A DNA stretch of 54,768 bases from Minisyncoccota bacterium (GCA_031972735.1 DALYED010000004.1:7284-62051), one strand, 5' to 3'. Shown: positions 1 through 52,052, counted from the stretch's first letter. The notes: generated from the letters alone by a model not told the origin. A program made the numbers and translations.

Positions 1-288
1 AGCAAAAAATCCGTGCGTGGTGAGATCGGTGTCACCAAATGATCCACCAATAGACTTCTCGGGCACAGCAACAATGACTTTCTTGATTCCTTGGTTTTTC
101 AGTTTATCAAGTGCAAGAAACATTAACGCTCTGGATTTCCCAGAAGCGGGAGGGGCTTTCAAGAGGAGGTATTGCGCCCCTCGTTTCTCGAATGCCTTAG
201 CCTGCATTTCACGCATACCTAGTGCGTTTAATTTCGTACTTTCGCCAGTTTGCTTGTAATCTGCAGTAGCGACTTGGATTGTTTTCAT
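1..288 (-). CDS. SF2 helicase / restriction (Res-like) ATPase, N-terminal fragment; the gene continues past the left window edge
   Basis: ATG at 288..286, 4 nt after the methyltransferase stop. Hand translation gives MKTIQVATADYKQTGESTKLNALGMREMQAKAFEKRGAQYLLLKAPPASGKSRALMFLALDKL..., with Walker A APPASGKS. The frame stays open to position 1. Confidence 0.6.
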   Translation of the reverse strand, partial: MKTIQVATADYKQTGESTKLNALGMREMQAKAFEKRGAQYLLLKAPPASGKSRALMFLALDKLKNQGIKKVIVAVPEKSIGGSFGDTDLTTHGFFA

Positions 289-292
289 ATAA

Positions 293-2962
293 TTATTTGT
301 TGGTTTCGTTACTGATCATTTCCTCATACAATTTGAACAAGTGAGCCAATCGGTCTTCGTCATTTTCAAAAGGTTTATTTCGGTATATTTGATCAATGGC
401 GAGGTCAAGATATTTGTGAGCGTCCCTCAATCCTTCGGGCATTTTATCAGGATCGTATAACTCTGCCATAGTTCTATCAGGGTATTTTTCACGTTCTCCA
501 AGGATATTATACACATGGCCAGTCAGTGCCTCTTTTTGTTCAACCGTAATTTCAGGAAAAGGAAAGGTGTTATAGCAAATTGTTCCCGAGTACCTAATAT
601 CAGTCTTTAATCTTCCTGCCACTGCCTTAACCCAAACCATGTGCATTTTTGATGTAAGAATACTAAATATATACAGCTCAGGATTATAAATAACTAAAAC
701 CCCATTACTAAATACTGTACCTTTATCTAAATATCCAACTGTCATATAATCCCTCCTTTCAGTACTTGTCATGGGAAGGATTATTGCATTAGAATTTTTG
801 AATTTTCTATAAAAAAATCGATGTGCCACTGTCGCTGCTTTTTTTGCATCTCGCCCTGCACTAAGTCTGAATGCCCTACATTTATCAATTCTGTCCTTAA
901 TTAAAGGAATTTCATTCGCTTCTTCGGCTAGTTCATCATCTATCCACAAACAAAATCTTTTTGTACCACTTAAAAAATCACTTCCACCCATAAATGGTTT
1001 TATAAATTTTTTTGAAAGAGGGTTATTTAGAATAAAATTATCTCTTTCTTCTTTTGAAAGAGTTAGGTGTCCACCATCAATTCCACTACTACCTAATATA
1101 ATTTCTCCTACTTCAGAAAGTGGTTTGTTTCTCGCACAAATATACAAATTTTTTGCTTCAACTAAGTATGGGGAAATATTAAAAACTTTATGTTTTATCT
1201 GGTCTGTATATATGTATTTAGGTCTCTCAGATAACTTTCTTAACCCTATGATCACGCAAGTAACCCCCGCATTTCCTTTTGCCGAATTCTGCCATTTAAA
1301 TGATTGATGTGCAAAACTAATTTCAATCTCATCACGCAGAATTAAAGGCCACAGAACAGCTACTTGTTCGCCTTGGGAAATTGAATTTGTAGAAACGAAG
1401 GCAGACTTATTATTTGTATTTTTAATATATTTTGCAGCAAGAAAAAACCAACAGGATATGTAATCAATATTGCTAATTTTTTCATTACCCTTAAATACTA
1501 TTTTTAAATCATCTCTTTGATCTTCATTTTGCTTTTTCGCTCCATAGTAAGGAGGATTCCCTATCACGTAAATTTCGTAAGGCTCATTTTTATAATTAAG
1601 CTTTGGGCATATTTCATTCCAATCTAGCCTTGTGGCATTTCCACAGATAATTTTTCCACTCTCCTTGAGGGGTAGAGTTGGTTTCATAATTCCAAATTCA
1701 TCATCAAACGAAAGATTCATTTGGTGTTGGGCAAGCCACAACGAAAGTCTTGCGATCTCATGCGCAAAATCATCAATTTCAATGCCAAAAAATGAGTTGA
1801 GGGAAATGCCTGATAGAGGCATGTGATTTTGTTGCCCCATGTCAGTCATTTTTTCAATTATCTTGATTTCGAGCTTACATAGTTCCTTGTATGAAATAAT
1901 TAAGAAATTTCCTGAGCCACAAGCAGGATCAAATATTTTTATCTTTACAATCCTCTCTCGCAGTTTGGTAAGTTTGTTTAAACTATCCTTTGAGTCTTCG
2001 AACTCCTCGTATAAGTCGTCGAGGAAAAGTGGCTCGATGACTTTCAAAATGTTGGGGACAGAGGTGTAGTGCATTCCAAGGTTTTCTCTTTGCCCAGGAT
2101 GAACGACTGCCTGAATCATTGATCCGAAAATGTCAGGATTGATCGCACTCCAGTCCAACTGTCCGCATTCAATAATGAGTTTTCTGGAGCTTGCCGTAAA
2201 AACAGGTAATTTAATCTTCTTTTCAAAAAGCCCACCGTTTACATATGGAAACTCGGTAAAGTGGTGTGCAAATAATGCCCTGTCCTTCGCCTCAGCATTA
2301 AGAACATCAAAAAGCGTATCGAAGTATGCACCAAGATCTGAACCACTCACTTGCGTTGATGAATCAAGTGAATTTGTAAATAAGGTCTTTGGGAATATAC
2401 CAGTGTCTTCAGCAAAGAAGCAGAAGAGTAGTCGAGATAGGAAAATATTGAGATCATGAAGTCCACTCTCACTATGATCAGGACTATCATTGATGATCTG
2501 ATCGTACAGCTTAGCCATTTTGCTCGCCGCACGGATATCAGCAGGATTCTCATTTACATGCTGAGCTTTCTCCATTCCTGCCCACGGCAAGAAGAAAGCA
2601 TAGTGCTTACCCAATTCGTTGATGTGAATATCAAGGGTTTCGCGCGTTTTTGTATCAACTGCAAGGAGAGTCTCAAAATCGGTAACAATAATAAACCGTG
2701 GGTTATACTTTGATGCCATCTTATCTTTTTGAAGATCATCAATAGTAACGTGCACATCTTCTCCCGATGGGACATGAAAAAGAAGTTTATTTTTCAGAAT
2801 TATCTGGTTATCCTTACCGGACAGTTTTGATGGGCTATTCCTAAGGAGGGTGATGGTGCTTTTAGGTATTTCGTATGCGGAAAGCAACTCAAAGACAAAC
2901 GTTTCCCTTGAAAGGTCTGTGCTCAATTTTTCTAGGTTTTCTTGAAGTGCAACTGAGTTCAT
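293..2962 (-). CDS. MmeI-family (type IIL/IIG-like) N6-adenine DNA methyltransferase with target-recognition domain
   Basis: 889-aa ORF. Motif I is IFDPACGSGNFLI and motif IV is GNPPYYG. Collinear MmeI-family blocks are RLLFCFFAEDTGIF, FPYVNGGLFE, LDWSAINPDIFGSM, NLGMHYTS, FFGIEIDDFAHEIARLSLWLAQHQMN and FVSTNSISQGEQV. Confidence 0.85.
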   Translation of the reverse strand: MNSVALQENLEKLSTDLSRETFVFELLSAYEIPKSTITLLRNSPSKLSGKDNQIILKNKLLFHVPSGEDVHVTIDDLQKDKMASKYNPRFIIVTDFETLLAVDTKTRETLDIHINELGKHYAFFLPWAGMEKAQHVNENPADIRAASKMAKLYDQIINDSPDHSESGLHDLNIFLSRLLFCFFAEDTGIFPKTLFTNSLDSSTQVSGSDLGAYFDTLFDVLNAEAKDRALFAHHFTEFPYVNGGLFEKKIKLPVFTASSRKLIIECGQLDWSAINPDIFGSMIQAVVHPGQRENLGMHYTSVPNILKVIEPLFLDDLYEEFEDSKDSLNKLTKLRERIVKIKIFDPACGSGNFLIISYKELCKLEIKIIEKMTDMGQQNHMPLSGISLNSFFGIEIDDFAHEIARLSLWLAQHQMNLSFDDEFGIMKPTLPLKESGKIICGNATRLDWNEICPKLNYKNEPYEIYVIGNPPYYGAKKQNEDQRDDLKIVFKGNEKISNIDYISCWFFLAAKYIKNTNNKSAFVSTNSISQGEQVAVLWPLILRDEIEISFAHQSFKWQNSAKGNAGVTCVIIGLRKLSERPKYIYTDQIKHKVFNISPYLVEAKNLYICARNKPLSEVGEIILGSSGIDGGHLTLSKEERDNFILNNPLSKKFIKPFMGGSDFLSGTKRFCLWIDDELAEEANEIPLIKDRIDKCRAFRLSAGRDAKKAATVAHRFFYRKFKNSNAIILPMTSTERRDYMTVGYLDKGTVFSNGVLVIYNPELYIFSILTSKMHMVWVKAVAGRLKTDIRYSGTICYNTFPFPEITVEQKEALTGHVYNILGEREKYPDRTMAELYDPDKMPEGLRDAHKYLDLAIDQIYRNKPFENDEDRLAHLFKLYEEMISNETNK

Positions 2963-2975
2963 GTTTATGTATAGG

Positions 2976-3188
2976 CTATTTTAAAAGCTCATTACTTGAA
3001 ACACCCAGCGCGCTCGCAAGTTTTGAAATAGTCGAAAGGGTCGGATTCGTCTTGCCGTTTTCAATATTGCTCACAAAACTTCGGCTAAAGCCGAGCGTTC
3101 TAACAATATCTCCTTGTGTTATGCCTTTCTCTGTTCTAATACGTTTTAAGTTTTTCCCCAATTTTGCAGACTCACTTTTCATGTCCAC
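2976..3188 (-). CDS. XRE-family helix-turn-helix regulator (controller/C-protein-like)
   Basis: 70-aa ORF with LKRIRTEKGITQGDIVRTLGFSRSFVSNIENGKTNPTLSTISKLASALGVS. It sits 13 nt upstream of the methyltransferase on the same strand. The ORF-track start is GTG at 3188; an ATG at 3183 is the more likely start. Confidence 0.8.
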   Translation of the reverse strand: MDMKSESAKLGKNLKRIRTEKGITQGDIVRTLGFSRSFVSNIENGKTNPTLSTISKLASALGVSSNELLK

Positions 3189-3191
3189 AGA

Positions 3192-3205
3192 TTATACCGC
3201 GGTAA
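3192..3205 (-). promoter_or_regulatory. -10 box (TATAAT, 3197..3192) overlapped by the perfect 10-bp palindrome TACCGCGGTA (3196..3205); candidate C-protein operator
   Basis: The reverse complement of 3184..3197 reads TATAAT-CTGTGGAC, followed by ATG at 3183, a gap of 8 nt. The palindrome was read directly. Confidence 0.45.
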
Positions 3206-3413
3206 TTATATTGTACACTAATATTATAATATAATGTAACAGTCCCGAAATTCATTATGGTAAGCGAAACGCTTTCTTGATTTTAAGTATGGCGGGGCGG
3301 AAAAAAATCGAGAGCCGGAGATGCCGTGGGGCGACGAGCGAAGCGAGCGGGGGTGCCTGAGTTATCCTTGCTCATTCCTCTCGAAAAAGGTTCGCGCGAA
3401 TGATATTATGACA

Positions 3414-3542: not shown

Positions 3543-5144
3543 ATGCAAGGACTCAAACCAAAATATTTCCTCTACGCGCGCAAGAGTACGGAGGAAGACG
3601 ATCATCAGATCATGAGTATCGAAGCTCAACTCTTTGAGCTTCGTGAATATGCGCGCAGAGAAAATATCGAAATTCTCAAAGAATTTACCGAATCGAAAAG
3701 CGCAAAGAAGCCCGGACGTGAGTTGTTTAACGACATGATGGAGCAAATAGAGTACAGCAAGGTTCCGCTCGGTATCTTGGCATGGCATCCTGACCGCCTT
3801 GCTCGTAATTCGGTGGATGGAGGCAAGGTGGTCTATCTAGTAGATACCGAGCAAATTGTTGCTTTGCGCTTTCCGACATTTTGGTTTGAGCCAACTCCGC
3901 AAGGCAAATTCATGTTGCAGGTGGCGTTCGGACAGAGCAAGTACTATAGCGACAATCTTGTGGAGAATATCAATCGTGGAATCCGCCAGAAAGTTCGTCG
4001 TGGCGAGTGGCTAACAAAGGCTCCCTTTGGCTATCTCAATAACCCTAAAACGCGCAATATTGAGCCTCACGCAACTGAATCGCGCATTGTGGTGCAAGTG
4101 TTTAAGGAATACGCCAAAGGGACGCATACACTCGGCACAATTTCTGACTTTATGGCGGATCACGGAGTACTTACATCAAACGGAACGCCACCTGCCAAAG
4201 CTTCCGTCGCTCGCATGCTTTCAAATCGTGCATACCTCGGTTTGACGCATCATAAGGGCGAGTACTACGACGGAAGCTTTGCGCCAATTGTTTCTCCGAT
4301 ACTGTTTGAAGCAGTGCAGAAGATGCTCGCGAAGAAAGCGAAGCCTCGTGTGCAAAAAGTACCGAACCATTTCCCTTTTGCACAGTTCGCAAGGTGCGGT
4401 GAGTGCGGAAGCATGATCACGGCTCAATATTCCACCAATCGTTTTGGTACTGTCTATACTTATTATCGTTGTACCAAAAAGAAGGGTGTCTGTGGTCAGC
4501 CGCATACATCCGCAGCCGCACTCACCGCCCAGATACATGCACTGCTTCAAACAGTCTCGCTTCCTCTTTCAGAAATTGAGGTCATGGAGAGACAAATTGA
4601 TGTATGGGAAAAAGAGTCAATTTCCAAAAGAGGAAGTGTTGCTCAAAATCTTAAAACCAAGCTTGCAGAAACAAAGGAGAAGCTCGATAAGCTCGTTTCA
4701 ATTTATCTCGATGGGGATATTGAGCGTGAGATTTACATACAACGCAAAGACCTTCTCCTTCGCCAGAAAAGCAAGCTTGAGGAGAGTTTTAAAGATTTAG
4801 GGCAACAGAGAAAAAATTGGGTCGAACCCTTGCGGAGTTTTGTTTTATCTTTGAGAGAAGGCGTGGAATTGGAAAAGGGCGAAAATTATTTCGCATGGCG
4901 TGAGTTTTTCCAAAAGATCGGCTCGAACCCTACTCTCAAAGACAAATCTCTTTCAATCCATTGGGGAGAACTTTATGAATTCATGGCGCACACAAAGGCG
5001 AATTGGATTTCCACAGCCGAGCAGTCTGCGTCGCAGACCGCGAGCTTTTCGCCATTCTCCGACAAAGTATCTTTAGGTGGACCATGGGAGAATCGAACTC
5101 CCCACCTCTTCCATGCCATGGAAGCGCTCTACCAAATGAGCTAA
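3543..5144 (+). CDS. Large serine recombinase (resolvase/invertase N-domain + recombinase domain + zinc ribbon + coiled coil)
   Basis: 533-aa ORF with FLYARKSTEEDD (Ser nucleophile), HPDRLARN, the Zn ribbon CGECGSMITAQ...YYRCTKKKGVCG, and a coiled-coil KLAETKEKLDKLVSIYLDGDI. The last ~60 codons lie in IR-R and antisense to tRNA-Ala, so the true C-terminus is uncertain. Confidence 0.9.
   Translation: MQGLKPKYFLYARKSTEEDDHQIMSIEAQLFELREYARRENIEILKEFTESKSAKKPGRELFNDMMEQIEYSKVPLGILAWHPDRLARNSVDGGKVVYLVDTEQIVALRFPTFWFEPTPQGKFMLQVAFGQSKYYSDNLVENINRGIRQKVRRGEWLTKAPFGYLNNPKTRNIEPHATESRIVVQVFKEYAKGTHTLGTISDFMADHGVLTSNGTPPAKASVARMLSNRAYLGLTHHKGEYYDGSFAPIVSPILFEAVQKMLAKKAKPRVQKVPNHFPFAQFARCGECGSMITAQYSTNRFGTVYTYYRCTKKKGVCGQPHTSAAALTAQIHALLQTVSLPLSEIEVMERQIDVWEKESISKRGSVAQNLKTKLAETKEKLDKLVSIYLDGDIEREIYIQRKDLLLRQKSKLEESFKDLGQQRKNWVEPLRSFVLSLREGVELEKGENYFAWREFFQKIGSNPTLKDKSLSIHWGELYEFMAHTKANWISTAEQSASQTASFSPFSDKVSLGGPWENRTPHLFHAMEALYQMS
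4960..5080. repeat. Right copy of the 121-bp inverted repeat (IR-R); lies inside the 3' coding end of the recombinase ORF
   Basis: It is the reverse complement of 3414..3534 (120/121). Positions 5078..5080 are also the last 3 nt (C71, C72, A73) of tRNA-Ala(GGC). Confidence 0.95.
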
Positions 5145-5150
5145 TGGCCC
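5078..5150 (-). tRNA. tRNA-Ala (anticodon GGC)
   Basis: The reverse complement folds as a 73-nt cloverleaf: GGGCCAT TA GCTC ATTTGGTA GAGC G CTTCC ATGGCAT GGAAG AGGTG GGGAG TTCGATT CTCCC ATGGTCC A. The G3:U70 alanine identity pair is present and CCA is not fully encoded. Confidence 0.9.
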
Positions 5151-50789: not shown

Positions 50790-52052
50790 TTATCCTATTA
50801 CTGACTTACCCATAAATGGGACAAGTGCATCTGGAACACGAATAGTACCATCAGCCTGTTGATAATTTTCAATAATCGAAACAAGGATGCGCGGAGTAGG
50901 GATTGCAGTACAGTTGAGCGAATGTGCAAAACGCATTTTACCAGAATCATCTCGATAGCGTGTATTAAGTCTTCTTGTCTGAAAGTCATGGAAATATGAA
51001 GCCGAACTGATCTCACGATACTTCCCTTCACCAGGGACCCAAAGCTCGATGTCGTATTTTTTCACCTGACCCAAGCCTAAATCACCACCGCAATTCACAA
51101 CGGTATGATATGGAATACCGAGAAGCTCAATGAATTCCTCAGTGTTACGATTGATCTCATCATGGAGCGCAACCGAAGTCTCATGACTTCCTTCGCAAAG
51201 TACAACCTGCTCCCATTTAAAAAATTCATGGACACGGATGAGTCCGCGGGTATCTTTGCCATGAGCACCTGCTTCGCGACGAAAGCATGGAGAAAATGCG
51301 AGAAATTTAATTGGACCCTTCGAAAGATCAATCGTCTCGTCCATGTAATACCCCATTGTTGCCACTTCACCTGTACCTGCAAGAAAATCACCATCTTGTG
51401 TTTTATATAAATCATCTTCTCCTTGAGGTAGGTATCCGGTTCCCAAAAAAGTCTCACGGCGCACAAGAGATGGAACAAGCATGGGAGTAAAAGATTTACC
51501 AACCCAATGCTTGAGTGCGAGCTGCCAAACAGCATTCGCAAGCAGCACTCCGTCACCCTTCAGAAAATATCCTCGAAAACCAGCGACTTTAGTGCCCCGT
51601 TCAAAGTCCACCATGTCATGCTTCTCCATTAGTTCAATGTGAGTTTTTGCTTCAAAGCCAAGTTGAGTAGGTTCACCCCAACGTTTTATTTCTTGATTAT
51701 CTTCGTCGCCTCCTCCTTCAGGAACAGTGATGTCTGGTACGTTCGGAACTTGAAGCATTAGTAATCTCCAGATTTCAAGAATTTGTTTGAGCTCTTCTTC
51801 TTTTGTCCCAATTTTATCTTTGAACTCTTTCATTGCGTCAATCATAGATTGGCGCTCGATGGGGTCGGTCGCACGAGCAATTTTATCTGTATAACTATTC
51901 TGCTCTGCGCGCATCGCCTCTACTTCAGCAAGGAGTGAGCTACGTTTTTCTTCAGCAAGAATGAGACTTTCCACTTCGAAATCAATATGCTTTTTTGCTG
52001 CTGCGAGTTTAATAAGGTCTGGATTTTCGCGAATGAATTTGATATCTAACAT
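50790..52052 (-). CDS. serS: Seryl-tRNA synthetase
   Basis: 420 aa with MLDIKFIRENPDLIK, an N-terminal coiled coil, and the class II motifs FRREAG and GTAIPTPRILVSIIENYQ-like blocks. Confidence 0.93.
   Translation of the reverse strand: MLDIKFIRENPDLIKLAAAKKHIDFEVESLILAEEKRSSLLAEVEAMRAEQNSYTDKIARATDPIERQSMIDAMKEFKDKIGTKEEELKQILEIWRLLMLQVPNVPDITVPEGGGDEDNQEIKRWGEPTQLGFEAKTHIELMEKHDMVDFERGTKVAGFRGYFLKGDGVLLANAVWQLALKHWVGKSFTPMLVPSLVRRETFLGTGYLPQGEDDLYKTQDGDFLAGTGEVATMGYYMDETIDLSKGPIKFLAFSPCFRREAGAHGKDTRGLIRVHEFFKWEQVVLCEGSHETSVALHDEINRNTEEFIELLGIPYHTVVNCGGDLGLGQVKKYDIELWVPGEGKYREISSASYFHDFQTRRLNTRYRDDSGKMRFAHSLNCTAIPTPRILVSIIENYQQADGTIRVPDALVPFMGKSVIG

Follow-up and report, generated by a model that had tools for sequence, protein, structure and literature searches.

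What kind of DNA modification system is formed by a methyltransferase that resembles the restriction enzyme MmeI along most of its length, lacks the nuclease motif of that enzyme and is followed after only four nucleotides by a helicase gene? This question is raised by a locus at the left end of a 54,768-nucleotide (nt) stretch of DNA from a Minisyncoccota bacterium (GCA_031972735.1, DALYED010000004.1:7284-62051), the whole of which is here called the window and corresponds to C4:7284-62051 of a scaffolded assembly (1.04 Mb, 29 contigs, many 10-N gaps). The host genome is that of an ultra-small, Patescibacteria-like bacterium and is roughly 1 Mb in size. In a preliminary description made from the sequence alone, the locus had been suggested to be a Type III/ISP/BREX-like hybrid. 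It is instead very likely a member of the YeeA(DnmA)-YeeB-YeeC class, the 'second group' of MmeI homologues for which the same mechanistic idea has already been described (PMC2731913), an assignment made through published descriptions and other Bacillus triads. Positions 1-3188 of the window are likely to represent the promoter-proximal part of an intact YeeABC-type operon, which is carried as cargo of a serine-recombinase island and for which a split-restriction mechanism is proposed.

An MmeI-like methyltransferase and its two partner genes

In the second group of MmeI homologues, as delineated by Morgan et al. in 2009, the PD-ExK motif is absent, the first 100 residues are different and the genes are 'invariably' flanked by genes for a DEAD helicase like YeeB and a GIY-YIG protein like YeeC (PMC2731913). 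Later accounts of the B. subtilis cluster and its homologues include those of Nye et al. (2020) and Fernandez et al. (2023). The same features are encountered in the present locus: an MmeI-like methyltransferase with a target-recognition domain (TRD), lacking PD-ExK and divergent over its first ~100 residues, is directly followed by a DEAD/DExH helicase gene and then by a T5orf172/GIY-YIG gene, in the same order, with tight coupling and on horizontally acquired DNA beside recombinase genes. The same triad is carried by the Bacillus loci L006, L075 and L092, and a B. subtilis control genome matches MmeI_N. The present copy differs from the class in its ultra-small Patescibacteria-like host genome, in being headed by a small HTH_3 gene (a minority arrangement), in its location within an 80-nt-inverted-repeat cassette beside a serine-recombinase cassette at a transfer RNA (tRNA) gene for alanine, and in having the helicase in its full 650-residue form.

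On the minus strand, the genes are ordered as HTH_3, the 889-residue methyltransferase, the helicase of about 650 residues and a 381-residue T5orf172 protein. The preliminary description had reported three co-oriented minus-strand genes with very short spacers, and both their coordinates (Table 1) and their spacers agree with the list of open reading frames (ORFs), with 13 nt between the helix-turn-helix (HTH) and methyltransferase genes (2963-2975) and 4 nt between the methyltransferase and helicase genes (289-292). It had also placed the remainder of the system to the left of the window, where the rest of the helicase and the T5orf172/GIY-YIG gene have indeed been found on the same contig. 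A scan for promoters and terminators detected nothing above chance that would separate the genes of the operon. The set of HTH protein, methyltransferase-TRD, superfamily 2 (SF2) ATPase and GIY-YIG protein is intact, co-transcribable and under constraint, with its catalytic motifs kept, and is located on mobile DNA.

Five Pfam domains have been detected in the methyltransferase, namely MmeI_N (98 bits, residues 1-158), MmeI_hel, MmeI_Mtase (360 bits), MmeI_TRD (243 bits) and MmeI_C, corresponding to a non-catalytic N-terminal domain, a helical spacer, a gamma-class N6-adenine methyltransferase, the TRD and a C-terminal domain. All five of the MmeI motifs that had been quoted earlier (FDPACGSGNFL, NPPY, LFCFFAEDTGIF, NLGMHYTS and FVSTNSISQGEQV) are present in the 889-residue translation. 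The protein scores 1012 bits with the PADLOC Type IIG model REase_MTase_IIG and matches MmeI (PDB 5HR4) with an E value of 8.5e-189 over residues 82-884 in a phmmer comparison. Such collinearity over about 800 residues, which takes in the homologous spacer, m6A (N6-methyladenine) methyltransferase, TRD and C-terminal domain, together with the Type IIG score, is what would be seen in an ordinary stand-alone Type IIL (MmeI-type) enzyme that happened to lie beside unrelated genes, and single-strand adenine methylation would be expected from either. MmeI, however, has its own D-X9-E-X-K nuclease and works alone, whereas the present protein has two conserved partner genes and is without the motif.

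The evidence on the motif comes from the N-terminal region. Alignment to MmeI begins only at residue 82 (MmeI residue 102), leaving residues 1-81 unaligned, and when the N-terminal 160 residues were compared with PDB sequences only MmeI residues 102-176 aligned, with the same boundary. Since the catalytic positions were thus not scorable on MmeI itself, they were scored against two stand-alone plasmid MmeI-type proteins, from Limosilactobacillus reuteri (L007) and Corynebacterium maris (L008), in which the match to the query starts near residue 80-88. The genes for these proteins have neither a helicase nor a GIY-YIG neighbour, and the proteins carry D-X10-EMK and D-X9-EAK, respectively. In the alignments with L007 and L008, D-X9-E-X-K is absent from the 889-residue protein, and in one alignment with stand-alone MmeI types its residues H63 and P65 occupy the E and K positions. 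A pattern search for D-X8-12-[DE]-X-K showed no conservation among 56 N-termini of the window type (the query and 55 relatives), six of which contain scattered chance matches at non-homologous places. The earlier statement that an acid-X-Lys sequence is missing is upheld by these comparisons, and intact N-terminal catalytic residues were not seen on alignment. The N-terminal 170 residues are matched by 657 database proteins at E <= 0.001, and R89, D103, F123, F124, P126, E131 and A145 are invariant in the N-terminal domain among 51 sequences. Expression of YeeA and of a second member of the group yielded no endonuclease activity (PMC2731913). With its first ~80 residues unalignable to MmeI and its neighbours retained as partners well beyond chance (see counts below), the protein is extremely improbable as a stand-alone Type IIL enzyme.

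A different kind of divergence has been observed in the TRD (window about 545-1155), which is 52% identical to that of the closest relative, on metagenome contig L002, while the flanking domains are 85-96% identical, a pattern of specificity turnover. The G+C content falls to 0.34 over window positions 1001-2000, which cover part of the TRD. Comparison of the two sequences suggests that the specificity domain was replaced by recombination.

The helicase ORF of the window starts with MKTIQV... and includes KAPPASGKSRAL. It continues leftward at C4:5614-7273, crossing two 10-N scaffold gaps, to give a full protein of about 650 residues. The left-edge truncation that had been described is real in so far as the ORF is open-ended at the edge, but its cause is the scaffold gap at C4:7274-7283, beyond which the sequence continues on the contig. 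The three pieces of the helicase correspond to residues 1-96, 97-340 and 347-650 of the intact 650-residue orthologue in L002, at 96-99% identity; no aligned residue is lost in the gap at C4:7274-7283 and six (ALGMAK) are lost in that at C4:6529-6538. Because the pieces tile the orthologue and the gaps cost only 0 and 6 residues, the gene is not a pseudogene, although the two gaps shift the apparent frame and would lead gene callers to report a broken helicase. Walker A, DEFHH (motif II) and QIIGRATR (motif VI) have been kept, and the coupling of the methyltransferase to a Walker-A SF2 helicase (PPASGKS), noted at the outset, stands with the 4-nt spacer. The helicase is unusually well conserved, being 60-75% identical across phyla, and its pieces share 67-70% identity with their counterpart in a Bacillus plasmid triad, which bears the annotation DEAD/DEAH box helicase. 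The intact orthologue barely passes the Pfam models DEAD, ResIII and Helicase_C (26-28 bits; ResIII 27.5), no nuclease domain was found in it with Pfam, and no close solved sequence relative was found in the PDB (best E 0.01). It is neither an ordinary Type III Res subunit nor a housekeeping helicase, two identities raised in the preliminary description.

The third gene is a 381-residue ORF that overlaps the stop of the helicase. Its matches, T5orf172 and MUG113, both belong to the GIY-YIG superfamily. The blocks GYIYxL...LYKIGF...RI...EWF are conserved in its product, which is 47% identical to a Bacillus plasmid protein annotated as 'GIY-YIG nuclease family protein'.

Conservation of the triad across phyla

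On two Patescibacteria contigs and one alphaproteobacterial contig, a methyltransferase homologue is followed by a 641-650-residue helicase and then by a 382-384-residue T5orf172 gene, and plasmid copies in Bacillus and Vibrio have been annotated as DNA methyltransferase, DEAD/DEAH box helicase and GIY-YIG nuclease family protein. A helicase-alignment scan with one genome per species confirmed at least 589 loci (589 of the 600 candidate stretches listed) in many phyla, and 80 loci kept among these at least 589 were used for counts of synteny. Of the 64 loci with enough sequence, 63 have a co-oriented MmeI-like gene upstream, and a YeeC-like gene lies downstream of the helicase in every locus that could be counted (71/71). 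Of 200 other genomes belonging to the same class as the host, only one has the helicase, and the system is thus accessory.

When compared to L002, the methyltransferase has a ratio of nonsynonymous to synonymous substitution rates (dN/dS) of 0.095, the helicase pieces have ratios of 0.007-0.038 and YeeC has one of 0.071; these values are rough since dS is 0.8-1.9 and near saturation. As estimated from these alignments, purifying selection on each of the three genes is strong.

These observations bear on the main rival reading, a regulatory orphan with relic partners. As has been proposed for DnmA of B. subtilis, the methyltransferase would be an orphan m6A enzyme that regulates genes, and the helicase and GIY-YIG genes would be functionless relics. 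A YeeA-like enzyme of Streptococcus mutans has been described as regulatory (PMC13081822), which is in keeping with such a role. In the present locus, by contrast, all three genes are intact with catalytic motifs kept, the dN/dS ratios are low in each and lowest in the helicase, the triad has been retained across phyla, the TRD is diversifying in the way seen in restriction systems that are active, and the locus is mobile cargo with a sporadic presence within its class. In addition, yeeAB alone mediates resistance to one phage group in Vibrio crassostreae 7F1_18 (Piel et al., 2021, bioRxiv 10.1101/2021.05.05.442762). Taken together, an orphan regulator with decayed partners is considered unlikely here.

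In a side observation, unrelated passenger genes of 0.5-5.7 kb were found between the methyltransferase and the helicase in 23 of 60 triad loci (L015-L089). These include RhuM (7), Schlafen AlbA_2 with HATPase_c_4 (5), Fic (3), PDDEXK_3, PIN, Abi_C and Mrr_cat, and they recall the genes embedded in Type I restriction loci.

Related restriction systems and a proposed mechanism

A variant of DISARM, BREX or Type III with further components elsewhere has also been considered, as the methyltransferase gives partial PADLOC matches to DrmMI (E 2e-40, residues 466-863) and PglX, and the helicase orthologue passes ResIII weakly. These DrmMI and PglX matches are confined to the shared methyltransferase/TRD parts, and the scores of NCBIfam PglX models on the methyltransferase are far below their cut-offs. 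DISARM class 1 is alike in that DrmMI shares the methyltransferase/TRD part, but it differs in components of which none was found here: in the 7.3 kb to the left of the window there is no DrmA, DrmB (DUF1998) or DrmC, nor PglZ or BrxC. The whole genome is without DUF1998/MZB (PF09369) and PglZ (PF08665), and for this reason DISARM and BREX do not apply. The PLD, DUF1998 and PglZ partners suggested in the preliminary description are likewise not present, within the 7.3 kb to the left for all three and genome-wide for DUF1998 and PglZ. Concerning Type III systems, the Res subunit needs a ResIII helicase with a C-terminal PD-ExK domain and a paired Mod, whereas the present methyltransferase is of the MmeI type with a fused TRD and the helicase has neither a nuclease domain nor a close solved relative; no Type III parts were matched in the 7.3 kb left of the window. 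The probability of this group of readings is put at next to nothing.

A closer functional likeness is seen with Type I (EcoR124I HsdR) and Type ISP (LlaGI/LlaBIII) enzymes, in which a site-specific m6A methyltransferase/TRD is likewise combined with an SF2 motor and a nuclease, and HsdR is among the structural neighbours of the modelled helicase (E about 2e-8). The present system differs from both in that the nuclease is a separate GIY-YIG/T5orf172 protein instead of being joined to the motor as a PD-ExK or Mrr domain, in that the TRD is fused to the methyltransferase, and in that the helicase forms a family of its own with no close PDB sequence relative. MANTIS (formerly Gao_RL; bioRxiv 10.64898/2026.09.23.753747) is also alike, in that this defence is based on methylation, with hemimethylation of short asymmetric sites, and leaves restriction to a helicase-nuclease effector of its own; it differs in two features, neither of which is present in this locus.

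Morgan et al. speculated that the MmeI-like subunit provides specificity and host modification, with its N-terminal domain contacting a separate helicase and nuclease (PMC2731913). A restriction-type mechanism along these lines is, on balance, probable for the present operon. In such a mechanism, the methyltransferase/TRD subunit would read a short asymmetric site and methylate one adenine on one strand as the mark of self. DnmA, the YeeA of B. subtilis, is known to produce m6A at GACGAG (PMC7261158). At unmethylated sites, the conserved non-catalytic N-terminal domain would engage the helicase and the GIY-YIG nuclease, ATP would drive translocation or remodelling, and foreign DNA would be acted on and cleaved by these two proteins. 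The whole, in line with Morgan et al. (2009), would amount to a Type I-like or ISP-like split restriction enzyme.

Several points weigh against this mechanism, besides the near-saturated dS values and the indirect class assignment mentioned above. An AlphaFold2 model of the N-terminal domain is confident (predicted local distance difference test, pLDDT, 86.7), but it has no Foldseek match in the PDB at E <= 0.001, its best restriction-endonuclease-like match having a template modelling (TM) score of 0.31. As a confident model has no significant PDB neighbour, the adaptor role of this domain is a conjecture. The AlphaFold2 model of the helicase (pLDDT 77) finds only generic SF2 neighbours in Foldseek (Hel308/Hjm, PolQ helicase, MrfA, RapA and HsdR; TM 0.3-0.4), and since it resembles generic SF2 cores only, the mode of action of the predicted structure is not deducible from likeness. 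[quoted passage not shown] Bacillus phages show no depletion of the DnmA motif (PMC9973331), and the literature holds no biochemical proof, for any member of the class, that the three proteins form a restriction enzyme.

The same lack of motif avoidance in phage genomes would also fit a triad that is functional in some way other than classical restriction, for example as an abortive-infection, replication-interference or island-stabilising addiction module. The Vibrio defence is specific to particular phages (bioRxiv 10.1101/2021.05.05.442762) and the helicase fold is nearest to repair-type SF2 proteins (Hel308, the PolQ helicase domain and MrfA), which would agree with such a function. A methyltransferase combined with a variable TRD and a nuclease is, on the other hand, the signature of self/non-self restriction, and a non-restriction module is given a slim chance compared with the restriction-type mechanism.

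The mobile island and accessory genes

The features of the locus inside the window are collected in Table 1. The preliminary description had noted a serine recombinase and a tRNA gene beside the module; both were found, the latter as tRNA-Ala(GGC), and the locus lies on a mobile island.

Table 1. Features of the operon and its surroundings, in window coordinates
Feature	Position	Strand	Basis
YeeB-type DExH SF2 helicase, first 96 codons	1..288	-	ORF list; open-ended; Walker A PPASGKS
YeeA/DnmA-type MmeI-family protein, 889 residues	293..2962	-	Pfam, PADLOC, PDB 5HR4 match
XRE/HTH_3 regulator, candidate controller, 70 residues	2976..3188	-	Pfam HTH_3, 59 bits
80-nt inverted repeat, right arm	3288..3367	.	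95% complementary to left arm C4:62-141
Large serine recombinase (island context)	3543..5144	+	Pfam Resolvase, Recombinase, Zn_ribbon_recom
tRNA-Ala(GGC), island edge (context)	5076..5150	-	ARAGORN

The 70-residue ORF at the head of the operon matches the PADLOC Control_protein model (E 1.7e-12), and its start is either GTG at 3188 or, alternatively, ATG at 3183. A TATAAT box (3197-3192), overlapped by the palindrome TACCGCGGTA (3196-3205), is directly upstream of the gene. As box and palindrome sit so close to both starts, the HTH transcript may be leaderless. This gene was examined as a feature of the family and rejected as such, since it is absent from the two closest relatives and only 7 of 54 other loci have an HTH_3 gene immediately before the methyltransferase. 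The 'C-protein', which had been taken as a part of the module, is therefore an optional add-on and, judged by its sequence, a candidate controller.

Beyond the 381-residue gene, leftward, a 468-residue gene follows after 4 nt (L001:3071-4477, minus strand), and then genes for a tetratricopeptide repeat protein, a winged-helix protein and a 287-residue protein. The 468-residue gene was tried as a fourth subunit of the system and rejected: its homologues occur by themselves in unrelated settings, and such a gene is missing from all 80 triad loci. It belongs to the family DUF8370 + DUF8371, in which D378 and E391-x-K393 are invariant in all 115 homologues, and on account of these residues its product is probably an independent PD-ExK protein. 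As further observations on this family, its solitary homologues in other genomes are often within recombinase/methylase islands, and the 468-residue protein has a weak PADLOC match to PDC-M36A.

The two arms of the 80-nt inverted repeat (C4:62-141 and C4:10571-10650, the latter being window 3288-3367) bracket a cargo block of 10,429 nt that includes the operon. Beside this block lies a recombinase cassette with flanking 121-nt inverted repeats, and then the tRNA-Ala gene; serine recombinases also adjoin the triad in L002 and L003. No direct repeat of the tRNA 3' end was found on the contig as a left border of the island. When metagenomes were scanned with a 29-mer taken from the repeat, five stretches were found. 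In one of them, L094, two inverted copies bracket a different cargo, composed of a Panacea-domain antitoxin, a GNAT acetyltransferase and an ABC transporter. The 80-nt repeat was also seen to adjoin recombinase homologues in L097 and L098. Contig C10 of the same genome as the window was observed to end in a partial third copy of the repeat (51416-51537), with a flank like that of the left arm (C4:1-61) and a core like that of the right arm; this copy may stem from a break in the assembly, from differences between strains or from an inverted cargo block.

At the left end of the block, C4:142-760 is an element of about 620 nt with 59% G+C in a genome of 41% G+C. No ORF is conserved in it, and Rfam gave no match even at E <= 1. 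The element is about 80% identical in L094 and L096, and among 400 genomes of the phylum only two contain partial matches. Its folding energy is well below that of shuffled sequence, with z = -7.3 for the plus strand and z = -4.1 for the minus strand, and a perfect 27-nt long-range pairing joins 363-389 with 685-711. Compensatory changes occur at 18 of 176 predicted consensus pairs, with three sequences only in the comparison. The element is thus a candidate large structured RNA or island DNA element, a lead and not a result. A broader reading of the locus, in which the operon is one exchangeable cargo of a so far undescribed mobile cassette found in ultra-small bacteria, bounded by the 80-nt inverted repeats with the serine-recombinase cassette at tRNA-Ala alongside and the GC-rich element at the far end, where that element could be a new structured RNA for mobility or control, is tentative and rather doubtful.

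The operon adds no new principle and is an ordinary new copy of a class known since 2009. This class is very widespread, yet its mechanism is still a proposal dating from 2009, and results in vivo conflict, being positive in Vibrio and negative in Bacillus. In the present copy, which belongs to a Patescibacteria lineage with a reduced genome, the system is seen to be intact, mobile and subject to purifying selection, and this speaks against regarding such clusters as nothing more than relics. With its four genes, one of them a candidate controller, the copy is also a compact version of the system that could be cloned.

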